Below are positions 23,043 to 56,828 of a stretch of 64,000 nt of DNA, one piece after another. A program made the translations under genes and the position numbers. The notes under the pieces are model-generated. The model ran no database searches. It was not told the origin of the DNA and saw only the letters and a program-made list of their open reading frames with translations. The stretch lies in the NCBI GenBank assembly GCA_045837725.1, contig JBEWZL010000232.1:124001-188000 (forward strand), in the 5' to 3' direction. Positions within the stretch are counted from its first letter, which is position 1. The number at the start of each line of letters is the position of its first letter. The stretch comes from Vermamoeba vermiformis. Its lineage: Eukaryota.

Positions 23043-23735
23043 ATGTCTTCTATCATGGACTTACCGATCACAAAGCTCGAGAACATGCACATCTCTCCCA
23101 AGCAGAATGCAGCCGAATTACAGACTTCAATTATCTTGCCTCCACAAATCCAGCTCATGCAGCCAGGTTATGTTGATAGGGGAATTCCAGCCGTCGAAGA
23201 GCTTCATTATTTCAAGAAGGGATGCGTATACGATGAAGCTGCCACGGCAATTCAAACCTTGCATCCGCAGAATTATTCAATCGAATTTGGCAATACACTG
23301 GCAGTTATCTTTTGGTACAACAACATGCCTTCAATATATCCGCGACTATCGCCCGAGGAACTGCTCGAATGGGGAAGGCAACGACTTGCACATCTGAATG
23401 TGAAGCTGCCGGACTTGCGGTCGCTGACGAGCGCCATCAATGACTACGTGCTTCTCGATGATATCGATTATGCCGACGCCATCGATTTATTGCACGTGTA
23501 TTTGCTGCAGTTCAATTGGCTACGTCTCAAGAAAGACGCCAAACCTGGAAGGTACGTGGTTTCAAATCCAGACAGAATTCGGTAGTCGATCGCAATGAGA
23601 TCGAACGGAATATGTATAATGTATTGTATTTATATATTGTGAAGCTATAAAGATGGAGTTATTTTTTGCTTTCGCTTTGCCAAAGCTCGGCGGATTTGCA
23701 GTTGCAAACAAGCATCCTGTTGTAGATCGACTTAG
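23043..23735 (+). CDS. Hypothetical protein
   Basis: Long ORF with a GTACGT donor at 23552 and an in-frame Cys-rich last exon ending TAG at 23735. The start is uncertain. Confidence 0.45.
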
Positions 23736-23963
23736 AACGGCAACAACTACCTGGCATTGACCGAGCCTTTATTAATATTCGTTATAAAAGTACAAGGTCG
23801 AGAGGTACGGTCACGCGCCCCTCGCTACAGTTTTTTTTTCAGATGTGTCTTCTTTTTCTGATTGCAAGTTGATTTTGGCTTGTGTTATTTACAAATACAC
23901 TTCATACAACAGAGCTGCATAGAGTGATGCAGATCTGTGCTTATCTTTACAAAAAATTGAGGT

Positions 23964-26900
23964 CTAGTTGAAGCTAGCGTACGTGGACTGATTGGCCGCT
24001 GCTTCAATTTCAGCTGCGCGTTTAGCCGCACGTAGACTAGTGCACTCTTCAATAAGACCCTTCAACACGTCCTTGTTGACTGGAGTGAAGATCAACGGAT
24101 GCTAACAAAAAAAAAATCAGGATCCAACTCGAGGCAACGAAGGCAAAAAAAAGTTGAACAAAAAATGATCTAGCATCGTAAGTGAGGCCAGCACTAATGG
24201 CAATACTCGTGCTGACTTGTCTGCAATGCGTTGATTTGGCCAGGACGAAGGCAAAAAATATTGATAGCCCCCTGCGGGATTTGAACCCGCGACCTTTGGA
24301 TTCGAAGTCCAACGCTCTACCACTAAGCTAAGGGGGCTTTGTTGAGCGAGGTGCGCGACAAAATTAAGCCACACCCCTTCACGAGACAAAAATACCGCGT
24401 ACCTTCAAAAGATCCATTGCTGTTGGCCGTTGGTCGGGATCTAGAACCAAACATTTAGCCAAGAAATCGTTGAAATTGTCGGAGTAAGAGCTAGCGTTCT
24501 TCAATGTGGCCGGAGGTCGTTCAGCAAGTTGAGGAAGCATTTCGATGGAGCGGATGTCAGTGTTTGGTGGCCGGCCCTCGCACATCTCAATAATAGTAAT
24601 GCCAAGAGACCAGATGTCAGCCTTGCCGAGGTATCCAGTCTTCTTAATGACTTCAGGGGCCATGAAGAGAGGACTGCCAACATAGTCCGCGCCTTCTTTT
24701 CGGTGCGTGCTCAGTTGTTCAGAGACACCAAAATCAGCTACAAAATTGTTAATACAAACAGCCCTTGATAAGCACAGTAATATACGACGCACCTAGCTTG
24801 ACGGCTCCTTCTTCGTTGACAAGAATATTGGCTGATTTGACGTCCAAGTGCAGAATATTTTGACTGTGAAGGTAGACGAGGCCCTTGAGTGTCTGTTGAA
24901 TCACGTACGTCGCTTGTTGTTCGTTCAGCGTGTCTTTGCACGTCTGCATAATGTCTTTAATAGAACCAACGCCGCAGTAGTCCATCAAAATCTACGCATT
25001 AAAAATTAGCGTTGAAAATACGGATCAAAATTATAGCTATATTTGTAACGTACCCAAACTTCGTTGTCACGCAAAATAGTGCCAAAATAATTGACGACTA
25101 AGGGACTCTTGCATTTTTTCAAAATTTCTACTTCAGTTTGTAACGACTGTTGCAAAATCTTGTTGGTCTGTTGAATAATTTTGATCGCCAAGGGAAATTT
25201 CAACTCTTTGTGCACGGCCTTGATCACACGGCCCCACGCACTGTTCAGTGAACCGATTAATCACGTGACACGGTACAAATATTCATGAACCACGTACCCT
25301 TGTCCGAGCTTGTCTTGCAGCTCAAATATCTCTTCGGGATTCTTCTCGCCACTCCACTGAAAGTCAAAACTGACGTGTGACGTGTGCTGCACATTGAACG
25401 GCACGCCAATGCCATTGCTCGACATGTTCACTAGCGACAAACATTAACGTTAACATCACGTGCCTCTAGTATATGTTACAATCGCTGCTGTGACTACGTA
25501 CTGCTTGATTTGCGTTTGTTTCGTTTGCTCTCGGGTGTGCCACGCGGATCATCTTCGCCGTCAATTGATTTGTTCAACACTTGCGCACGAATAATTGTGC
25601 CCAGTACTTTCAAACAATCGACCCATTCTTCCATCTACACAACGCGTAAATTAATTAATTAGCAAAAACCGAATTATTTCTCGTAATTTTTGCGCGTTTT
25701 TGAAAAATATCAGCGGTGGCAACTTAATGCGAATAAATTTCAAAGTCCACTGATATTTCCCACGCTCTATAATAATCTACTCGTATTCTCGTGCCCACGT
25801 ACCTCTTCTTTAGTCTTTGCGTACATTAACAAGCGACGGTCAGTCGTAGTCAATGCAAATATGTAGCCTTTAGTTTTGCCCAATTTCTTAGCCTCATCGT
25901 CCGCTATTGGTGCTGCATCAATAAATTCTGCTAATTCTATCGAGCCTTTAGGCTTTTGATGCGACTATAATAGTGTTAATTCAATCGTTAATAAATTGCC
26001 GCTCAATATATGTGTCAATTAAAAAATAATAATTATTATTTTTTTTGTAACGTGCAGTATGAGAGTTATATTAAGGACTATACGTACTGTAAATGCGCGT
26101 TGGTTCTCGTAGTAATGCAATGAGCGCTTATCAGCCATAATCACAAAATAACGCTCTTTCCAAGATTTGTTACCGCCTTTCGATCCACCTTGCTTTTTTA
26201 ACGTTCCTTGCTTTGATAACGCTAAGAGCTGTATAATAATATTAATATAATATATTTTTGATGTTTATAGAGGTAAATTGAATAGTACACCAAACAATAA
26301 GCAGATGTCAATTCAATTAGGAATATATTTTCAATAATATGTTGTATATGAGTGATATTTAGCGAGCGTACCTGATTTTCGAGGTCATCAATAGGCGAAT
26401 AAACAATATTGATGTCTAAGACTTGATAATTCACAATGGGCTTCAAATAATTCGAATCAGCTCGCATAGGACTATCATTTGGTTCTGAAGGGCGTGTGCG
26501 CGGGGCATAGCGCAATTCTAATACGTCCTATTTGATAATAGCATAAATACAGGTAAATTCGAGAATTAAAAATAATCAACGGTAAGATCAAAAAAAATTA
26601 ATAAAATAAATATTATAATCAAATCTTACCTCTTGTTTGAGCTGATAATTCAAGAATCGCTTAGAAGGGTCTAATATGACATCAACTTTATCGCCTTCGA
26701 CTTCTTTGCTCGGTCGTACTGCGACGATCCTGAATTCGAATTGATCGGGCTTAACTGAGGGTAAAGCCCATTTAAGGATTTTGCGAACAACGTCCTTAGT
26801 TGTAGTATCCTCTCCTTCAATATATAACGATCCTTTTTCTGGATTTGCTTTCAATTTCAGTTCAACTTCTTTACCGCGTTTCAACTCGATGCAGTCCTGA

Positions 26901-27282
26901 AAATTAATAATAATTAATTAATAATTCGATAGTAAATATATTATATGCACTATACCATCTTCTTAAAGCCATAAGAGAGCAGCGTGCGGTCTTCATCAAC
27001 CAATCGCATTCCACTTGCGTGTAGGTGATAACGATTGCTTCTTAAATTAGGAGGCAGCATAGTATTAAGTCGGTCTATAATCTCCTTGACTGTAGAGTTG
27101 GATTTGAATAATCGTTGCGAATAGCCGCTCATCGAGGGGATTTGAACTTTTAATTGAATAGTCGTCTCGCCCGGTGCAAGCGTCAAGCCACTGCTCGCTG
27201 AGAACTGCTTCGTGAGCGAGGGTGGTTGAAACCCAGTTGATCTTGGGCCTTCGTCAGGCTGAGGAGCACTCACATCCGACAT
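23964..27282 (-). CDS. STE20/PAK-MST family kinase with ubiquitin-like domains, PH and CRIB
   Basis: Ubl-like LKVQIP..DEDRTLLSYG, PH GTLKKQGG..WKERYF, CRIB IGVPFNVQHTSHV, and kinase motifs HLDVKSANIL, DFG and GSPLFMAPE. Last exon HPLIF... at 23964-24101. Confidence 0.85.
24169..24239 (-). ncRNA. Candidate tRNA-linked hairpin RNA, copy 1
   Basis: 68/71 identical to 35715-35785. Forms a two-stem hairpin followed by AGA-TCA-TTTTTT. Confidence 0.45.
24266..24337 (-). tRNA. tRNA-Arg(UCG), copy 1 (intronic)
   Basis: GCCCCCTTAGCTTAGTGGTAGAGCGTTGGACTTCGAATCCAAAGGTCGCGGGTTCAAATCCCGCAGGGGGCT folds to a full cloverleaf with anticodon TCG and a downstream T6. Confidence 0.95.
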
Positions 27283-27750
27283 TTGTGCTGCTCAAATTAG
27301 TTTCAGACAAAAAAAGGGCGGATGTGAACTGCGAACTTAAACCACATGCTCGTGGTAATTATGGACATTTATGGAATTTCTTCTAAGGCTACTTTAGCGA
27401 GAGCAAGACAGGACTTGCGAAGAGGTCCCAATTGTGCTTTAAATTCAACACTCGTCCCGATCTGCTATTTAATGAGCAATGTTGCACTAGAAAGACCTTC
27501 TATCCATTGTATTATGATACACTGCGCTCGATACACCCTTCTACTGCTGAATCTTATTTGAATCAAATTCTCGCAAACACTGCGGGATCTGCTAACAATT
27601 TGACAGGTGAAGATTTCCCGAGCTCATTATAAGTATATGTTGCTAGGAGAATAATGAATAGCTCTTCAAAAGTAATTACCGCGGGATCCTGAAGCGAAAA
27701 ACTCGATCGAAGCTAGTAAATAATTTGTACCGGCGAGCAACGCTTGATTT

Positions 27751-29038
27751 TTATTTATTATTGCTACTCGTAGTATTTATATTGTTAATATAACCACTTC
27801 TATGTCTGTACAGCTCTTCAACCCACGAAACAATTTGTGGATGTTTAAACACGCCTTCAGTGCTCTTGAAAAACTCTTCTAAATTCTTTCCTTGTGCTAC
27901 AAAATTATAAAATATTAATAACATCATATTGTATGCAGCATTAAGTCTTCAATTCAATTGTTTAAAAAATTTTGTTCGTTACAAAGCGAGGCAGATGCGT
28001 TCAATTTCGGTTTGAGAGGAGTTTGCAAGACTGTAGTATCTTTAATACTACTCACCTTTCTCATATTCAGAGGCTTGTAATATCATTTCGAGCTTATCTA
28101 ACTGTTTAACAACTTTGCCTTCGGGAGTTGCGCCATCCTCGTACTCGCACCACAGATCAAAGATTTCTTTGCCTAAATAAGCCCATATTAACACTATATA
28201 CTAGTACTACCAATATTATAGATCATACCGATCGGTCCTCCTAGTGTTTCAAAGCACATTTTTTCAAACGCTTCCTACGCGATAAAAAGCTGCTTAGTAT
28301 TGGTCCCTATGGTCCTATATTCGCATAATATCCACTAAATATGTTTATATATATGAATAATATACCTTTTCCATGCGTTGCTTTTCTTCTTTCGAGATCG
28401 GATCGCTAGGTGTAATGTCGCCAACAATTGCTTCGCCCAAATCGTGTACTAGAGCCATTTTAACACATCTATGTTATTAATATATGTCAAATTGATATAA
28501 TACTACTTGATATTACGCGAAACAAAGCAAGTAATGAAAAATAATTGATTGTAGCAGATCTGCTAATTTTTTCGGATTAAAATTGAGCGTGAGACTTACC
28601 TTTCTCTGTTAATATTAGGATCATCTATTAAAAGTGATAATAACGATATGAAGCAGAGGTGATCAGCGATTGATTCGGGCAAAAGAATTTTGTTTCGAAC
28701 CCATCCAGTACGCTTTGTTGTCTAGTCATCAAAATTAGCATTTAATTTTTTTTATACCATGAAATATATTAGATGTTATTATCAGTATTAAGGATCGTTG
28801 ATTCATCTCGTAACAAATAAACCAATATTTAAAAATAAAAATTATTGGATCGAGACTTAATATTAATTCATAAAAGCGCCGTTGTTTTAACGATGCGAAT
28901 ATAGTATGTATTATATTAATTATAAATATCTAGGCATACCTTCAAATTATAACAGATTCGCATAAATTCTAACACCGAACTAGCGCTTGAATGCGGTGCA
29001 GTGGCATTATTTTGTTTAATTTCTGTATTTTCAGCCAT
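27751..29038 (-). CDS. HDDC2: HD-domain 5'-deoxynucleotidase, HDDC2/YGK1 family
   Basis: [33 protein letters not shown] and [17 protein letters not shown]. Confidence 0.9.
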
Positions 29039-29185
29039 ATTAAATAATCTATGCCTATAATGTTGTGTTTCACGTGTTTTGGCGTGATCTACTTTGGACA
29101 CCAAAAATTCAACATTTATTTTGGTTTTTCAATGATGAGCGAGACATTATATTAGTATTATTGTATTATATATCCCTATTGTATC

Positions 29186-31361
29186 ATGTGCAAATACGTA
29201 TTTAGTCTCGCTCTATTATTATTTATTTCGTATTTGCAATTTTCTTTTTGCGCGGATCAGTTCCCGATCCCAAGTTTGCCTTTACAGCGCGTATATGTAT
29301 TTTCAGACTATACTAGAAACATATATGGATTTAAGACTGATATGCAACCTGGATCTGCTTATGTATTTAAATTAAGGTAATCATAAATTAATTTTGATTT
29401 TAACTGCTAAACCAACGATTTTATTAATTAAAAATATCATATATTATATATTATGATACTAATAACCTATTTATACAGTCGATACTCATCTTCTTCGTCG
29501 TTAAATGATGTGGATCAGCTCAGCACTTTATTCTCTCCATTTGCGAGTGTTTCTCGCTTTAGAACCGATCGATTCGAGAAGAAAATTTATTTTAGACAAA
29601 ATGTAAGCAATATATTATTAATTTGCTATTCTTTTGAACTGATTCAAATTTCAATTTTCCGATCGAACCGACCAAATCCAAAACAAAATGTTCAAATCAA
29701 TCAAATTAACTAACTATATTTATAGAACCGTATTAGTCGTATGAATGCAGATGGTAGCACGCAAGAAGGCATTTATTTCTCTGAGTCACAGCTCATTGGC
29801 GACTTTGCGATCGACGACATTAATCGTTACTTGTTTATTTTGCGAGTAAGGACTAACTAAATACATCATATATTATCATATATTAATATACAATACTTAC
29901 CAGGTCTCTATCACATCGTACGAAGTTGAATTGGTTCGGATCTCACTCGATACGCTTCAGTACGTTACATCGCCTAATTTAATGTCCAAATTAGTAATAT
30001 TCATATTTCCTAATTAGTGAACACGTTCTCAAGCGAGGTTTGTCGTCGTGCTCAGCAATGCAAGTAGATCCAGTGAACAATTTGTTGTACGTTGTGCAAT
30101 CGAACGTGACAGCGGAAATTTATCGGAAATATCTCCTCGTAATCTCGACTGGAGGCTACGAACTCGATAAGATACCCTTATATGGTAATCTAATCATTGC
30201 ACTGATTTTTATTGGTCCTAACTGTCCCTCTCAGATGCGAACCACAACGCGTACTCGTGCGATGATTATACACTTGCCATAAATAGAAATAACGGCATCA
30301 TATATGTAGGGTACGTTGCCATAAAAGGAAATAAGATTAATTGCAATATAACAATTACGCAGAGTTTTACTTTGACACGCGTCAACACTGGAATGTGTCA
30401 TATTGACACTTTGACTGAATATTTCCTTTTATAGTAATACCTACACGCTCGAGTACATCGACTACATCAACGAGCAGCGCGGTGTCATCTTGTACCCCTC
30501 AGACTGGACCAATGCGTTTTATTCGAGCTCGTCGTACAGCGACTTGTTCTACGAGGAGAAGTAAGATCCGCTAACACATTGTGGGCCTAAAACAACCATT
30601 TTAATACTTACAATAGTGATGATACTATATTCACTTTATTAATATATTTATTTCTAGGAGCAATCTGTTGTACATGTTGAGATCCAGTGGCGAGTAAGTA
30701 ACACCATTGCAGTGCTATATACTATGCCTCTATTATAATAAAGGATTAGTATTGATGTCACATATTGACTATAACTCACTATGATTCTCACTACAGAGGC
30801 ATGTTCATTGATGTCTCAGGCACGCCACCACGGCCCACGACGATGACGGTCTTCTTCACCATTGACTCGCCGCTAGGGTTCGCGGTGTTCCCTTGCGAAG
30901 GTAATAAGACACTATTATATGAAACTATACAGTATTTGTGCATATCGGTGAAGTGGAGCAGATCCGCTCGCGATCCAAAAATTTTCAAAATTGCGAACAC
31001 GTGACTTTTTGACACTCCAGCCAATCACAGCAAATATATATGACAGTGCTAATATGTCTAATGTACTATAGGCGACTGCAAGTATGCCCAGTCATATGAC
31101 CTGACGACCCTATTGACGGTGCTGGGCTTCAGCATCTTGCCCATTGGTGGTCTGTTGTCGTGCATGATCATCATTTGTGTCAAAAACAGACGCGAGAGAT
31201 TAGCGCTGCAAGCACTACAAGCCAATGACGACGATGATGACAGCGATGACGAGGACGGGGATGATAATGACAATATTATGGGCGATGACGATGATGCGGA
31301 CAATAACGCGAATAACAACAATAATAATAACGAAGCGGATCCGCTCTTGCCCGTGAATTAG
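29186..31361 (+). CDS. Type I membrane protein, probable beta-propeller ectodomain, acidic/Asn-rich tail
   Basis: Signal peptide, repeats such as FAIDDINRYLFI and MQVDPVNNLLYV, TM segment VLGFSILPIGGLLSCMIIICV, and a D/N-rich tail. Confidence 0.6.
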
Positions 31362-31550
31362 TTGTACAGTTGCTCGATGGGGTACTTAACAAATGTAAAT
31401 AGTAATGAATGGTGTTAAAAACCAGCCCTTTTCCTTTAATTTAGTTATGATGAAGTTTTGGGATTTTATTGAACAATAAATACAATACTAACGACTACTA
31501 TTGATGAATAATACACAGATCGCAATTACAAGAGCATTGAATATGCTCTC

Positions 31551-34500
31551 TTACTTGACTTCTTTCTGCAAGAATTTACAAATGTCTTCGAACTCGGGTC
31601 GACTCTCAGGGTTTTGTTGCCAGCACATGTGCATCAGTTCGCGCAACACATCTGGGCAATCCTTGGGTATCTCGGGGGTGACACCTTGATCACGAATCAC
31701 CAGCGCGGCTTGAATGAGATCGATGCCCTCGAACGGTTCTTTGCGTGTAACAATCTCCCAGACTGTGATGCCGTAACTCCACACATCGGTCTTACGGCCA
31801 TAAATAGCCTCGCGCAAGGCCTCAGGAGCCATCCACTTGATAGGTCCGACGTATGATCGAGTCTGGCCTGTGTGCGAGACATCTTCTCCGAGGACACGTG
31901 ACATGCCAAAGTCCTGCAAAGGGGTTAGACCATTGACACTTTGACACTTTTGACACTTACTGAAATCTTTGGTTGGCCGTCCTTTGAGAGCAAAATGTTA
32001 CGAGCAGCCAAGTCACGATGAATGACGTTGTTCAAGTGCAAATGCAACATGCCACGAGCAATGCCGAGTGACAACTTGATCTTTTGCTCATCGCTGAGAG
32101 GCACTTGTGATTGCAACAGCGTGTCTAAACTGCCTGAAGGACAGAACTCGAGGACCATTTCCGGTGAACCACCGTCAACACTGACACCGAGCAGTTGTAC
32201 CACGTTAGGATGAGGTCGGATAGCCCTGTATTCTACTATTAGTAACGAATACGAAGTGCTACTAACACGGTACTCACATCATCAACTCGGCCTCTTGAAT
32301 GAACGAATCCATGTTCGAGATAACATTGGCGACTTTGACAGCGACTTCGCAGTGTTGCCAATCCTACAAAAGCATTATAATTTCGTCGTAGCTGCGAGTG
32401 TCGATCAATACTTACGCCCTTGTACACTTTGCCGAATGATCCAGAGCCAATCTCTTCAATGAATTTGATCTTCTCGTGCGGAATGTTCAATCGATCGCGC
32501 ATGGCCAAGTTCACTAAAGCTGCGATTAGTCTTTGAATGATTAATAATCAGAAAGGACTTACAAAGCTTGTCAACATTTCTGCTGGTCTCGTTGTTGCTA
32601 GCCACGACACGTTGCAAGGGAATGTTGGAGTAGCTCGTAGAACGGTTCTCGGCAAAGTTGGCGCGAGCAGATTCGACGTCATTGACGGGGTTCTCAATCG
32701 TGACAGCCTTCTTCTCCTCTTTAGGACCTTTCTTTCGTCGCTTCAACAACACGAGCAACACGATCAAGCCTACAGCCACGACGACAACAGGCACGACAAT
32801 GGCGGGCACAATCACTTCGACCTTCACGCCATCAGCAGGAGGTGTAACGTTGTTGTTGGCAGGTTCAATTGATGGGTTGCCGGCACCAGGTGCACTCGGT
32901 GTGCCAGGATATGAGGGACTAGTTATAGGAACGAGTGTGCCGTCAGGAGTGTAGACAGGGAATATGAACTCGAACTGCGACGTGCGATCAGGGAATGTCG
33001 CGAATGACAAGTTTGCAGCAACAGTGCCGAGTGTGCCAGTCATGACTTCCAAGGCTGCACCATTGTTGTCGTTCAACGGCGCATAAAGGAACGGATTGAG
33101 TGCGCTGACGAGTGCGTTCTTCGTCAAGTCGCCGGTGTAAAACACGTTGTTTCTGAGGCCTTTCCATATTTGGAAGTCAGAGATCAGGCCATCAAAGCCT
33201 GTGTAGGTGTTCCACGAAGCGGAAGGACGTCCAAGGTACACATTTACATTCGTGAGATCAACGTAGGTCTGTGTCAGGCCCGTGGTTTGATAAGAAGTAC
33301 CGTCCAGAATTGCAGTGACAGTGCCGGCATTAAAGTCAATTTTGACGACCAAACTCACTGTCTTGCTGGAGGGCATCTGGGTGATGGCATTGAACTTGGC
33401 CGGTAGTCCGCTGTTAAAACCAATGTTCAGACCAAGCGTGCCAGTCGTGTCAATCACCAATCCGAAGCCTGTGCCGGGGAAGTCACCAATGTTCGCAATC
33501 ACTGACGTAGCTGTCAATGTCGGAGCACGCCAGTAGATGTTCATGGCAAAGGTGAACTGTGTGTTCGTGCTTGCAGGCAAGTTCTGACCCGTAGCAAATG
33601 ACACGGTGTCACTGGGACTCAAGTTCAATGCATCTAAGAGACCGTTAGACTGCTGTAAGTACTCTATCATCTTCGCGTTTTGTAACGTACTCTCGGGAAT
33701 GGGCGTCCAAGTTATCTGGCCTGTGAGTTGACCTTGCGAAGGAGGCGTGTACCAATTGTAAATGGTGGTGCCGTTGGTCTCGCCAAGGTTATAATACGCA
33801 GCAAGAGAAGTATCACCGTTCGCTAAGTTGATGCGAGAGAATCCAACGCCCCAGACACTTGGAGTAATCGAAGCCCAGAGCTATGAATTGAGTTAGCATA
33901 GAGTGCATGAGGGACGACACTTTGCGTACCTGAATCGAGGCAATAGAAGCGCCTAATGCGCCGTAATGTCCACCACCAATAGTCATCGTGGGGACATTTG
34001 TGTCGCCAGGATAGCCGGTGTACACATCTTTTTGCACTTTGTTAACGAACAGCTTGACATAACCCGCACTGGATTCAACTTGGAATGCCACGTAGATCCA
34101 CGTGTTGAAAGGCACATCGTACTGAGTGAATGTGTATGTCGTCGTGTTCGCTGTAACACCAAATTTGTTGGCTAACGGGTCATAGAACGCTGTCAAATTG
34201 TTGAGCACAAACACGTCTGCCTTGTTTGCTGTGAATGCCTGGCCAATCTTGAGCCACATCGCAATCGTCACGTCGCCGCTGAATGTTGCAGGGACAGGCA
34301 AGGTGATAACAGAGCTCGCGTCGGTTAAGGCCAGTGAGTTCAAGAATCGCTGATGCCACGAGTGATCTCCTTGGATCGTGAGCGGACTACCAGTACCGGC
34401 ATGATTGTAGACTGTTGAGCCAGCACCTTCTCTGAATGGATAAGAGGCTAATAAATTATAGATCGTGTCGATCTTCCAATCAAAACTGAATTTGTAATCT

Positions 34501-35426
34501 TGAGACGCTGAAAATGCCTCCGTGTAGACCTGATTTTTTCAAAATTAAATTTGATTAGCAAATCTTTCTGTTATAACTAGTTATATTCCTACAAAATACA
34601 TTACCTGAACATTATTGATAAATCCAGTATATGTATCGTCACCCCAGCCTCCGACATAAATTCGTGCACTTTGTGTAACTTTGGCGGTGCTGAACGTGAC
34701 TTGTTGGTTTTGGAAGCTCGGCTGATATGCAAACGCACGAGCAGTTGTACTGCTAGCAAAAAATGAATAAGCTACACAAATCAAATTTGTGACACCTGGA
34801 GTGATAGCCAGGGACGTGGATGCGTTTCCAGCTCCGCCTTGCCAAACAACAATATTGAAGTTTTCGTCCAATCCAAAACCAAATCCATCACCGTTGGAAT
34901 AATTGCCAATATAAACAAGGTGCTGCGGACGGGGCGTCGCGAGTTGTACAGCGCGGATTGTCGCACAAAGAGTCGCCGCAGTGCTAATCGATGATGCATC
35001 GAGTGAGCCAGTAACATATCCGCCATTATATAGTACAAGCCATGGCACTAATAGTAAATTAATTAGTTAAATTGTACGGATTATTTTTATTTAGCGTAAT
35101 CTTTGTGACAGTTATGATGACATGGTGAATCAATTCAATATGATTAATTTTGCCATCAATAGTATTGAAGATTTGTATTAGTTTAAATCATGCCGATAAT
35201 GTATAAAAGAATTTACGCGGTAGGAATTTTTACTCGTGATCCAACCGAACACACAGAATTTATTTCTCCTGCAGTTCGTAGGGTTAAAATTACAATATTT
35301 AAAATTAAGGGTAGTAATAATTGTTTAAATCGGGCGATCAGAACCCTGATTCTTACAGTTTGGGCCGACTGGTTGACACGCAACCCATCCACAAACTAAC
35401 AACACCACCAGCCAAACTCGCAGCAT
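31551..35426 (-). CDS. Receptor tyrosine kinase-like protein with three LamG/ConA-like ectodomains
   Basis: Signal exon MLRVWLVVLLVCGWVAC (35426-35357), three GxIxxxQ(V/I) LamG-like repeats, a TM segment, GSGSFG, HRDLAARN and GPIKWMAPE. Confidence 0.85.
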
Positions 35427-35714
35427 ATCTGCCTGATGTTGACTTAGTTGTTGTTATTCGTGTGTTAAAAATATGCGTTTGAATTAATGGCGGGTGCACA
35501 AAAACAAACGACGGTTTTGACACGCGGACCGAAAATTGACTTGTTCGATGACCATTGTCCCGTTGCTGTTTGTCCATCAATTCATCAAACCACGAGCAAG
35601 TACTTTGTTGTTAGACATACCCGACGTTGAGTTGACAAGCGGTATGTCGCGTTCATTAGGGGCGGAACGACCACACTAATTAATCGCAAGCTATCAACGA
35701 AGGCAAAAAAGTAG

Positions 35715-35785
35715 TCTAGCATCGTAAGTGAGGCCAGCACTAATTGTAAAACTCGTGCTGACTTGTCTGCAATGCGTTGATTTGG
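35715..35785 (-). ncRNA. Candidate tRNA-linked hairpin RNA, copy 2
   Basis: Same hairpin as copy 1, followed by AGA-CTAC-TTTTTT. Confidence 0.45.
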
Positions 35786-35811
35786 AGAGACCAAAGGCAA
35801 AAAAAATTGAT

Positions 35812-35883
35812 AGCCCCCTGCGGGATTTGAACCCGCGACCTTTGGATTCGAAGTCCAACGCTCTACCACTAAGCTAAGGGGGC
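35812..35883 (-). tRNA. tRNA-Arg(UCG), copy 2
   Basis: Identical to 24266-24337. Confidence 0.95.
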
Positions 35884-35939
35884 TTTGATGAAGAGGGAAT
35901 TTCGCCGCTACAACACCCCATTACAAAAGAAAAGCGCGT

Positions 35940-37488
35940 TTAAATGTGGTTTGCCATTGTGTCTACACTCACAAATATGTCATCGGTTGCTGCATATGAA
36001 GGCACTGCTGGGCACGCGTTGTGTTGCGTGCGGTACTCGTACATGAAGAAGTGGTTGTAATAGTGCACCAAAGCTGCGGCAAGCACGAAGAAGTGCCAAA
36101 TGACGTGGCTGTTCAAGTGCAGGTCAAACTTGCCAGGGAAGAATCTCTCGGGTGCCTTATGCAAGTAGATCATAGCTCCTACAATGTACGTGAGACCCAT
36201 GAGTCCTAATCGCCACATGATAGGCGCCATGAACTCTGCGCCGTTCAGCCACTAACACAATTAGTAATGAACAACATTGCTAGTTTAAATGCACTTACGT
36301 AGCCGTGGACCAACGGGAAGGTGCCAAAAAAGCTGAGGCCGATGAACAGTGCAACACGTGTTCCTTCAAAGCCTGCATCACCAACATTGTGCGTTCGCCT
36401 GTTACATTCATTAATGCACAAGTCATAATCACTCGAGCTAGTCAACGTACCAGCAGAAGTAAATGCTGTATCCACCGAGCAACGAAATGATAGAAATGTA
36501 TAAGATGAATAGTGTCGGTTCGCAGTGGAAAATGTAATATAACGGGAAATAAATGCTGCCAGTGATCATTGTGCTAATGCCTACAGTTCATATTAGTATC
36601 GCTGCGATGAACGAAGGTAAGATTAAGACTTGTTGACGAACCTGAATAATCAAGCTTGGCCACGTGAGCACAAATTCCCGTATTACATGATAATGTATGA
36701 TATGTTACAGAGGATAAGAGCATGATTTGCGCGGCGATTAAATGGATCGCAAACCACAATCTGTCTCCGAAATCACCTATGTGACGAATGTGCGATTAGG
36801 CATATTAAGATTCCAGCAGTCATTATATTAAACATACCAGTAGTATTCAAAAATGCAATTCCGTCGACTAATAAATATACAAAGATGAAGAAACCTATCA
36901 GATCTGCGGCGGTTAAAGAGAAATTTGCGGGTAAAGTTCAGTATTTTAAATCAAGTAGCTATAATAGGTAAATAAGGATACGGCTCCAAATATTCCATGT
37001 TTCTATAATTATAAAAACAAGGTTAGTAACACGTGTCAGAGTACAGATATTTCGGATCGACAAAAATGTCAGAATTTATCAAATAATCCCATTGTCGATA
37101 AATTAAAACAATTGGGTATTTTTGTGGCATTAATATCGTAACCGACAAACGGTCGGAGTTTAAAAAATTTTTAATTACCGTTATGCAGGTGGAAAATCGA
37201 TTTAAAAGCTGTCCACGAATCCAAATGAGGCCTATAGTGATTTAATATCCACGGGTTGTGCTTAAACATTTCTGGCAAATGATTCCAGTGGAGAAGATCG
37301 TAATCTCGAGACAAAAAACTTCCGCTTTTTTTCAGGGGCCGGGCCTCTTTCATATTTTCATGGGCACTGTGATTATTTTCGTGTTTATGCGCTGCATGCC
37401 CATTTGTGTGGCCGTGATCGTGCGGATCTCGTTTTCTTAGATGGCTCCGAACTGCCGTCTCTTCCTGTTGCACAATGGTCCTTTCCAT
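35940..37488 (-). CDS. PAQR/adiponectin receptor family (HlyIII) membrane protein
   Basis: NPWILNHYR, SIFHLHNET, SVTYHTLSC, KLDYS and PERFFPGKFDLHLNSHVIWHFFV. Confidence 0.9.
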
Positions 37489-55203: not shown

Positions 55204-56490
55204 TTAATTATCTACATCTTCGAGAAGTTCATGTTGTTCAATTTCAGTGAAATCCAAGATCCGCATATTTATCTCTTCAAAAGATTCGTTGAACTCAACA
55301 TCGTCGACATTAATTCGTTCTAATAATCGTTGTAAGGTGTTTTGTGTTTTCAATTGATCTATATTTGAGTGCCATAATTGGAAAATACTCTTAATTGAGG
55401 TATTATGAAGAGCTGCACAGACGGATCTCTCTTCCACCTTAAATAACTCGGAGTTTCTATTGTAATTATCCAATCCGACCTTAAATCCAGTCGGACACCA
55501 CGAGACAAATCGAATTTTTTTTGTTTCTTTGAGTTGCTGAACACTTTGACTGACCTCATGTCGAAACAGTCCTCGAATAAACATGTGAATTCTCATATAA
55601 TATCCAGCATTAAAATCTACATCGCACAATAGTGAACTATTTTGCACAGCATTTCCTATTAAAGACTGCGTTGACGGATCTATTTCGCAAGGCATGCTAA
55701 CTTCATCAAATGTAGTTACGAAGCTCGGTACGGTGAAGCTGATTCCGGGGTACGGATCAAAGTGAGAAATCTCGGAAAGTGAGATTCCAATTCCATTGAA
55801 TCTATCGGTTGCTGTAAAGCTTGACAGAGTTTTCGCTACGAATCTGTTTAGATCTACTTTGCTGTGTTGATTTTTCGAATGAACTTGTCTTTGAATAGCA
55901 GTGTCTTGATACATAATTCTTGATGGATTTGCTTGTGCAAATAAATCATACGAAAGAGTTGAATTGATCATTTGTTCGGCACTTGAAGTTCGATCTGCCA
56001 GCACTACGATGTCATGAATGTACTTTCTGCCGAGCCCGATATTCGCCAGGTCAATGTCATGTATAACAAAGCTGGTAGCTTCTGTCGAGTCTCGAATAAA
56101 TATGCATTGGGCAAGGGAGTCACACCTTTCGATTTGTTTTCTAATGGCTGACTCGATCTGGCTTAGCTCTTCATCGCATAGCTTGCCGGTATCAGAATCT
56201 CTATTATTCAACAGCACATGGTTTTGCTCAGGGTCATTGTAATCAGGATATTGCAAGAAGGGAGTATCAGCGAAGGTCGATCCTACATCTATGATAACGG
56301 ATCGAGGAATAATTTTGTTTTCATTTTGTTCGTGAAAGAACGATGCCCAGTTTTCGGGCTTTTGATTTGTAGACTCCTTCTGTGCAAAAGAATGATTTTC
56401 TAGTCCGTGCTCTGCTGAAATCTGACGCCAGAAGCTCGATCCAATATTAGCACCTCTATTGCCCAGTTGAATAACAATAGTTTCTCGCAT
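55204..56490 (-). CDS. Highly divergent, intronless tubulin-family protein
   Basis: MRETIVIQLG..FWRQISAEHGL, IPRSVIID, PYPGISF and FVSWCPTGFKVG are present. The GGGTGSG motif is absent. Confidence 0.85.
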   Translation of the reverse strand: MRETIVIQLGNRGANIGSSFWRQISAEHGLENHSFAQKESTNQKPENWASFFHEQNENKIIPRSVIIDVGSTFADTPFLQYPDYNDPEQNHVLLNNRDSDTGKLCDEELSQIESAIRKQIERCDSLAQCIFIRDSTEATSFVIHDIDLANIGLGRKYIHDIVVLADRTSSAEQMINSTLSYDLFAQANPSRIMYQDTAIQRQVHSKNQHSKVDLNRFVAKTLSSFTATDRFNGIGISLSEISHFDPYPGISFTVPSFVTTFDEVSMPCEIDPSTQSLIGNAVQNSSLLCDVDFNAGYYMRIHMFIRGLFRHEVSQSVQQLKETKKIRFVSWCPTGFKVGLDNYNRNSELFKVEERSVCAALHNTSIKSIFQLWHSNIDQLKTQNTLQRLLERINVDDVEFNESFEEINMRILDFTEIEQHELLEDVDN

Positions 56491-56828
56491 GTATGGCCTA
56501 CGCAAGATTATTTCAATTGATTTTTCAATTACATTACATTTTTAAGTTTATTCAAATGTCGCTCCAGCCTTACCGTTTAAGTAATATCTGCTCTCTTATA
56601 ATTTTGATGCATGTGGTCGTGTTTACCGTTGATTGTTGAGATCAAAGCAATTAAATATGAAAAAGCCGATTAATTTTGGAACGTCAAAAATCCAGGACTT
56701 TCCCTTTGCCATCAATTGTACAATGCAAGAGCCACATATATAACCCTAGATACATAATAAATGCATGCTTTGCGTAGCGTGAGTTAGTTTAGAAGGGTCT
56801 AGCTTTATTGCGAACACAAATTTTAGCT

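Follow-up and report, generated by a model that had tools for sequence, protein, structure and literature searches.

Guide RNAs of the H/ACA class are almost unknown in Amoebozoa: in the available parts of the literature, one has been cloned in Dictyostelium and those of Entamoeba are mostly computational predictions. The single-hairpin form with an AGA box has so far been treated, in those same parts, as a peculiarity of trypanosomes and Euglena. Here we describe a repeated unit in a 64,000-nucleotide (nt) stretch of Vermamoeba vermiformis DNA (contig JBEWZL010000232.1, positions 124,001 to 188,000 of the forward strand, hereafter the window), in which a transfer RNA gene, tRNA-Arg(UCG), is followed on the same strand by a 71-nt block that folds into a hairpin. 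With a probability of about 0.55, we read this block from its sequence as the gene of a tRNA-coupled, single-hairpin, H/ACA-like (AGA-box) pseudouridylation guide, the product of which would most likely be a small RNA of about 64–75 nt. An AGA-box guide in an amoeba would, if this holds, broaden the known ways of making modification guides and inform the question of whether one hairpin is the ancestral state. Its notable features would then be the coupling to a tRNA gene, the RNA polymerase III (Pol III) terminator at its end and the position of one copy within an RNA polymerase II (Pol II) intron.

The closest described RNAs are the AGA-box small nucleolar RNAs (snoRNAs) of trypanosomatids and Euglena. 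The consensus for the trypanosomatid single-hairpin H/ACA-like RNAs was drawn from 100 RNAs (Psiscan, PMC2613932; cited here and below from the available part of that paper). The block resembles these snoRNAs in that AGA stands 1 nt past stem I, the pocket top lies 15 nt from the box and the overall size is about 64 nt. However, trypanosomatid guides are located in Pol II polycistronic clusters (PMC2613932), whereas the block has a tRNA gene ahead of it and a T-tract at its end. It also differs from the trypanosomatid and Euglena guides in its apparently amoebozoan lineage and in an invariant 10-nt 5′ leader.

Two other kinds of gene place a second product behind a tRNA. As here, the dicistronic tRNA-snoRNA genes of plants place the tRNA ahead of a small nucleolar-type RNA on one strand, with a Pol III T-tract behind the second RNA. 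Those genes, reportedly the ones of Kruszka et al. 2003, are said to carry box C/D snoRNAs and to be terminator-free between tRNA and snoRNA. Here, in contrast, the downstream RNA is H/ACA-like and a run of six or eight T (T6 or T8) separates the two parts, and the unit falls outside the definition of the plant type. In the known tRNA-5S ribosomal RNA (rRNA) pairs a tRNA gene likewise stands in front of another Pol III product. There the downstream 5S rRNA is co-transcribed with the tRNA, whereas here co-transcription is opposed by the T-tract. A narrow literature search, which covered mostly titles and the beginnings of abstracts, returned no tRNA-linked H/ACA gene.

Among amoebozoans, the H/ACA snoRNAs of Entamoeba histolytica include single-hairpin forms on northern blots (PMC3542256, available part, here and below). 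One of these snoRNAs, ACA-Eh-SSU1315, has the pocket geometry of the block, with one unpaired guide nucleotide on each side. Unlike the block, the E. histolytica guides carry an ACA box, presumably derive by processing from precursors with two hairpins and have no tRNA linkage (PMC3542256).

The repeated tRNA-hairpin unit

ARAGORN detected exactly two tRNA genes in the window, both tRNA-Arg with anticodon tcg. All features of the two units lie on the minus strand, and coordinates are window positions. Copy A of the tRNA (24265..24338) and copy B (35811..35884) each score 79.5 bits against the Rfam tRNA model and are identical at 74/74 nt. Each is followed by a spacer. Spacer A (24240..24264) consists of the 3′ trailer, a T6 tract, GCCTTCG and an 8-nt variable patch, and carries the motif TTTTTTGCCTTCG; spacer B (35786..35810) consists of the 3′ trailer, T8, GCCTTTG and the variable patch. 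The T6 of copy A or T8 of copy B lies 6–7 nt past the tRNA. The 71-nt blocks come next, block A at 24169..24239 and block B at 35715..35785, each made of a leader, the hairpin and the AGA. The hairpin lies ~35 nt downstream of the tRNA gene. Tail A (24138..24168) reads UCA, T6, GTTCAAC, T8 and GCCTTCG, and its T-tracts are candidate Pol III terminators; tail B (35698..35714) reads CUAC, T6 and GCCTTCG.

This layout bears out the original prediction, made from the letters of the window alone, of a duplicated cassette with a tRNA, a spacer and a 71-nt block that is 68/71 identical between copies. The six spacer differences that it listed were recovered over the 25-nt stretch compared here (it had counted a spacer of 26 nt), and the three block changes do fall in the apical loop, as it had stated. 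We further retrieved the fold it had described, with AGA, 3–4 nt and T6 at the end and the AGA 15 nt from the upper stem, as well as the motif recurring after both tRNA and hairpin and the divergence of the 5′ flanks.

Outside the tRNA the copies differ at 9 positions in all, 6 in the spacer and 3 in the loop. Five of the 6 spacer differences are found in its last 8 nt. Within the block, which runs from CCAAATCAAC to GCTAGA, the differences, at positions 36, 39 and 41, are confined to the apical loop of 14 nt, and the 57 nt made up of leader, stems, pocket strands and UAGA show none. The excess of differences in the spacer over the block (Fisher p = 0.010) and the probability that 3/3 block changes fall in the loop (0.0077) come from tests that were framed after the data had been seen and rest on two copies. 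The 21-mer GCATTGCAGACAAGTCAGCAC, which covers stem and pocket, occurs twice in the window at up to 3 mismatches, and was matched in 0/100 shuffles. The loci upstream and downstream of the unit do not align between copies, and the similarity of the 5′ flanks is not significant (168/2000 shuffles gave an equal score). Together with the unalignable flanks and the diverged patch that separates two invariant islands, this pattern is better explained by selection than by one conversion tract or a recent duplication.

A 194-nt contig from a soil metagenome carries the tRNA plus the hairpin with 6 differences over 180 nt. The tRNA-hairpin linkage therefore appears to be kept in a soil relative, which counts in favour of a guide RNA.

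The comparison of copies also bears on a reading without function, in which the hairpin is a passenger in a tRNA and 3′ flank that were recently duplicated or gene-converted, the clustering of differences being due to chance or to two multi-base mutation events. The small number of changes, 9 over about 170 nt (5%), and their confinement to two patches (8 nt of spacer and 6 nt of loop) agree with such an origin, as do modest folding z-scores, and tRNA genes commonly show concerted evolution. However, the sequences around the unit cease to align no more than about 10 nt away from it, and this is therefore no ordinary segmental duplication; a conversion tract across tRNA and hairpin should have wiped out the spacer differences too. 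Moreover, the linkage is retained in the soil relative, and the fit to the H/ACA rule and the target match presented below would both be coincidence. We consider a functionless passenger unlikely.

The spacer differences have a further consequence for local pairing. Five of the six alter which small 5′ hairpin can pair with CCAAA in the invariant leader: UUU.GCC/GGC.AAA in copy A and UUUGG/CCAAA in copy B. The leader also contains AAAUCA, which matches the H-box pattern ANANNA and could be part of a vestigial 5′ hairpin or a chance match.

The motif TTTTTTGCCTTCG occurs at four sites in the cassettes at 0–1 mismatch (24246-24258, 24138-24150, 35792-35804 and 35698-35710), one on the 3′ side of each tRNA and one on the 3′ side of each hairpin. 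A fifth site at 1 mismatch lies outside the cassettes, at 23662-23674 on the plus strand. At up to 2 mismatches the window holds 13 matches against a shuffle mean of 3.4, and 13 was reached in 0/100 shuffles. These repeats may represent a terminator context that has been used more than once, or they may be target-site duplications left by an old insertion of the module.

The second possibility leads to a reading of the hairpin as an insertion relic downstream of the tRNA, either a small-RNA retrocopy or a mobile element placed by tRNA-targeting retrotransposon machinery, with TTTTTTGCCTTCG (or GCCTTCGT) as the target-site duplications. Such machinery is known in dictyostelid amoebae. More generally, tRNA-targeted retroelements are known in Amoebozoa (PMC5006619, available part), and each copy of the module is bounded by direct repeats of 13 nt. 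The module nevertheless lacks a poly(A) tail or any other hallmark of an element, and its copy number appears low, with about 3 variants by single-position depth and not hundreds. We regard an insertion relic as very unlikely; an origin by insertion would, besides, be compatible with a present function.

The copy number comes from a run of DNA reads (X1), in which depth climbs over tRNA and hairpin and single-position depths fit about three hairpin variants. This suggests about 2–3 copies. An estimate of 5–6 copies from bin depths in the same run was rejected, as overlapping short contigs inflate the sums. A short interspersed element (SINE) or another tRNA-derived repeat, the former named as an alternative in the original prediction, is also unlikely: there are 2 copies in 64 kb, about 3 variants by depth, and the tRNA is intact at 79.5 bits.

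Hairpin geometry and predicted rRNA target

Both copies fold into stem I (GCAUUG/CGAUGC), an internal loop formed by CAGACAA and CUCACUUA, stem II (GUCAGCAC/GUGCUGGC) and a 14-nt apical loop. In block A, the leader CCAAAUCAAC occupies 24230-24239; stem I is formed by 24224-24229 paired with 24173-24178, and stem II by 24209-24216 and 24187-24194. Of the two pocket strands, CAGACAA on the 5′ side is at 24217-24223 and CUCACUUA on the 3′ side at 24179-24186, with the apical loop at 24195-24208 and the AGA at 24169-24171. The internal loop thus has 7/8 nt. This architecture is present in the minimum free energy (MFE) and centroid folds of both copies, and the hairpin is retained when the spacer is added to the folded sequence. 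The MFE is −19.1 kcal/mol for copy A (z −1.86; 10/200 shuffles fold at least equally well) and −19.6 kcal/mol for copy B (z −2.66; 2/200). Past stem I the sequence is U-AGA-UCA-T6 (copy A) or U-AGA-CUAC-T6 (copy B), with the AGA starting 15 nt past the upper stem, or 14 nt if an unpaired C is not counted.

On sequence and predicted fold, the block appears to agree with the trypanosomatid AGA-box consensus in every dimension (PMC2613932). The consensus size is 57–91 nt (block, about 64 nt), with a stem I of 5–8 base pairs (bp) (6 bp), 1–3 unpaired nt before AGA (1), an upstream pocket side of 5–11 nt (7 nt), and a downstream side plus stem I plus spacer of 13–16 nt (15 nt). A perfect stem II adjoining the pocket is required (8 bp), the apical loop has at least 5 nt (14 nt) and the guide-target arms have 3–9 nt each (6+6). 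The consensus AGA box lies 3 nt from the 3′ end, and in the gene sequence of the block AGA is followed by 3–4 nt and then T6. A canonical two-hairpin H/ACA RNA with an H box (ANANNA) is not formed; upstream there are only mini-hairpins of 3–6 bp, which differ between the two copies.

A search against Rfam, proposed along with the original prediction, left the hairpin unmatched at E up to 10 in a 351-nt region and at E up to 0.5 in the whole window, while the tRNA was matched. Several classes of small RNA, namely dictyostelid Class I RNAs, vault RNA, Y RNA, pre-miRNA and box C/D RNA, were set aside, as their boxes, sizes or Rfam matches are missing. On the antisense strand of the tRNA genes, at 24265-24337 and 35811-35883 (plus strand), Rfam gave a sub-threshold match to the Plastid-ycf2 5′UTR (32.3 bits against a gathering score of 65.7); this is an artefact of a model that apparently includes an antisense tRNA-like part.

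To find a target for the pocket, rRNAs were scanned for uridines whose 5′ flank is complementary to the 3′ pocket strand and for which the sequence following U-N is complementary to the other pocket strand, with at most one unpaired guide nucleotide at the pocket top per side. The rRNAs were one complete small-subunit (SSU) rRNA (L067), one large-subunit (LSU) rRNA and one 5.8S rRNA (both L025), all confirmed with Rfam, as was a partial SSU (L055). They come from the ribosomal DNA (rDNA) of other eukaryotes that contaminates prokaryotic assemblies, and were fetched by a 16-nt 18S motif.

The best bipartite site was GGAGUGA[U]U-UGUCUG, with 6+6 bp including one G-U and a score of 10.5; the runner-up in any rRNA scored 7.0. 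In the proposed complex, UCACUU of the 3′ pocket strand would pair with GAGUGA, and CAGACA of the 5′ pocket strand with UGUCUG, both in 18S helix 36. This pairing would bracket the first U of GAUUUG (yeast U1301, Arabidopsis U1302) and present it to the pseudouridine synthase Cbf5/dyskerin. The original prediction had suggested that the 5′ arm could pair with a conserved SSU segment. That segment did prove to be the best target, although the pairing is limited to CAGACA/UGUCUG since AGUCA sits in the upper stem; the second arm is UCACUU with GAGUGA.

The pocket controls gave the fraction of random pockets for which a site of equal quality turns up at any place in the rRNAs. A score of 10.5 was reached by 24/1000 shuffled pockets and by 69/1500 pocket pairs sampled from the window. 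As a positive control, the pocket of the 5′ hairpin of ACA-Eh-SSU1315 was run through the same scan. It selected a U located 11 nt upstream of the predicted site, with 7+6 bp and with one unpaired guide nucleotide on each side, as in the block. The target of this guide is equated with yeast 18S U1290 and human U1347 (PMC3542256). The control thus lands at the U1290 equivalent, which validates the orientation and register of the scan, and the predicted site, 11 nt downstream, corresponds to yeast U1301 and human U1358. Yeast pseudouridine 1290 (snR83) was accordingly rejected as the target of the block, the control placing that site 11 nt upstream.

Arabidopsis U1192 is equivalent to yeast U1191 and human U1248, and Arabidopsis U1311 to human U1367 (PMC8351944); by these equivalences the predicted site is Arabidopsis U1302. 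This uridine of 18S helix 36 is a mapped pseudouridine assigned to snoR88 (PMC8351944). The predicted site lies 110 nt from the U of GAC[U]CAACACGGG in 8/10 rDNA loci holding both motifs, in agreement with the numbering. We take this reference U to be the m1acp3-pseudouridine site. The block and Arabidopsis snoR88 would thus, by the chain of numbering, share the same predicted target uridine (18S 1302, helix 36). Unlike the block, snoR88 is encoded in Pol II snoRNA clusters. The list of E. histolytica guides, in the available part of PMC3542256, has no guide for the equivalent of SSU1326.

The pairing scan gave no site for the pocket in the tRNA-Arg itself. A search of metagenomes with the pocket pattern matched a single locus (L001), within an apparent coding sequence and without a tRNA, which we discarded as chance; a scan of viral contigs with the same pattern gave 0 matches.

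The anatomy of the unit, the constraint between its copies and the complementarity to a site equivalent to a known pseudouridine are the observed basis for a guide RNA. Part of this basis would equally suit a structured small RNA tethered to the tRNA with another function, such as a Cbf5-independent ‘AGA-like’ RNA or a Pol III RNA with a regulatory or chaperone-binding role. The pattern of constraint and the T-tract at the end suit small RNAs made by Pol III in general, both copies share an unchanged leader of 10 nt that a guide would not require, and the hairpin has no match in the Rfam searches described above. In addition, trypanosomes possess AGA-like RNAs of the same shape that are independent of Cbf5 (PMC2613932). 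Such a function, however, leaves unexplained the match of the loop strands to a conserved site in rRNA, at the correct distance of 14–15 nt from AGA, and the fact that this rRNA site is a mapped plant pseudouridine. We judge it improbable.

The rDNA used in the scan is one example of a wider occurrence. Eukaryotic rDNA was found in contigs filed as bacterial or archaeal metagenome-assembled genomes (MAGs) or isolates (L025, L055, L067 and other short-contig loci among L002-L075). L025, filed as a Saccharibacteria MAG, holds a full eukaryotic LSU, a 5.8S, part of an SSU and a 5S gene. This looks like contamination.

Possible expression of the unit and points against a guide RNA

The original prediction had proposed a selected Pol III tRNA-guide RNA unit. 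Its guide component has gained ground through the AGA-box dimensions, the best bipartite site in the scanned rRNAs and the mapped Arabidopsis pseudouridine. For the remainder, expression, the polymerase, the protein partners and the modification in this organism, we infer what follows. Transcription would be by Pol III, as suggested by the T-tract 3–4 nt after AGA in both copies and by the tRNA partner. The T6 or T8 just after the tRNA should stop most Pol III, so that a dicistronic precursor would need leaky termination. One conceivable route is therefore leaky read-through of the tRNA terminator followed by cleavage by RNase Z. Alternatively, Pol III could start separately, about 25–30 nt downstream of a T-rich tract; stem I is preceded by such a tract at a distance of about 24–32 nt, and transcripts may begin at the invariant leader CCAAAUCAAC.

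Processing out of Pol II transcripts would be yet another route, as copy A is intronic in the sense orientation and copy B lies in sense just past a stop codon. All of cassette A is enclosed, in sense, by a 301-nt GT..AG intron (24102..24402, minus strand) of a gene with a PH domain and a STE20-like kinase domain. The splice joint 24101->24403 is supported by 6 RNA-seq reads with 6 start positions, and the flanking exons match Pkinase and PH. A gene of the HlyIII/PAQR family precedes cassette B on its strand, with the stop codon 55 nt before the cassette begins. The last exon of that gene, with the stop codon, is at 35940..36251 (minus strand; open reading frame (ORF) with Pfam HlyIII E = 1.1e-16, profile positions 169-224 of 224). 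Sense orientation at both loci has a chance expectation of one in four. As it stands, the locus presents a tRNA gene that is complete, scores highly and has candidate terminators of its own, inside a spliced intron, that is, a Pol III unit within a Pol II intron.

These surroundings could also be taken to indicate that the block acts as DNA or during transcription of the tRNA gene, as a backup terminator or as a protein-binding site for Pol III recycling or for shielding the Pol II gene. Past the tRNA there are two to three T-tracts, in a GCCTTCG context that recurs, and the placement of copy A within a Pol II intron and of copy B just past a coding region is in line with this reading. On the other hand, run X1 contains copies of the same or a closely similar tRNA joined to other flanks, and one of these flanks has an ordinary T-run. 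A DNA-level element also gives no reason for the stems, the complementarity of the pocket or the AGA spacing, and we find it highly improbable.

Several points weigh against a guide RNA, first of all on the side of structure and box. The structure signal from the fold z-scores is modest. The Psiscan rules by themselves yield millions of first-stage candidates, and some RNAs of this shape do not depend on Cbf5 (PMC2613932). The conserved 10-nt leader is foreign to trypanosomatid guides, and the amoebozoan guides of E. histolytica use ACA, not AGA (PMC3542256). For covariation, the unit is known only from two nearly identical copies and from a contig that is 97% alike.

As to the target, the fetching motif was the target motif itself, and the presence of the site in the scanned rRNAs is thus by construction. 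The target match reaches a p of only about 0.02–0.05, and one guide nucleotide stays unpaired on each side at the pocket top. The helix-36 site is, moreover, unmodified in yeast and human (PMC8351944). With regard to expression, the T6/T8 between tRNA and hairpin argues against simple co-transcription, on the sequence as read. In a complementary DNA run (poly(A)-type, from a strain 90–95% alike) the depth over the cassette is 0–1, which is inconclusive for a small RNA.

Beyond the guide itself, a wider proposal can be made, which we hold only tentatively and consider doubtful. It states that tRNA genes serve as Pol III launch pads for single-hairpin AGA-box guides in an amoebozoan lineage. In that event the unit would be the first tRNA-linked Pol III guide of the H/ACA class, the AGA form would not be confined to Euglenozoa, and the modification placed by the guide would be a helix-36 pseudouridine that until now has been reported from plants.

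Neighbouring genes and other observations

A protein from a metagenome shares 97% identity with the kinase exon beside cassette A, and the closest named relatives of this exon, from the amoebozoans Planoprotostelium fungivorum and Arcella intermedia, show 65–67% identity. These matches point to a probably amoebozoan organism that has no near relative among those sequenced. An RNA-seq run with the same species label (X24) is mostly 90–95% identical over 23700-24800, with many fixed differences and with small indels in the 3′ exon region. With this level of identity, the species label covers a clearly different strain or species.

Downstream of cassette B, three consecutive ORFs are located at 32456-35066 on the minus strand, two of them with Laminin_G_3/concanavalin-A-like domains. 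They may form one multi-exon gene or a tandem family. Further along, 55204-56505 (minus strand) holds a single-exon ORF of 433 amino acids that belongs to the tubulin family. Its closest database relatives are 51–58% identical, and it is 22–28% identical to the alpha-tubulin-family proteins next in the list; the predicted protein is a divergent tubulin paralogue. Finally, the G+C content falls to 32% at 28001-30000, compared to about 40–45% elsewhere in the window.

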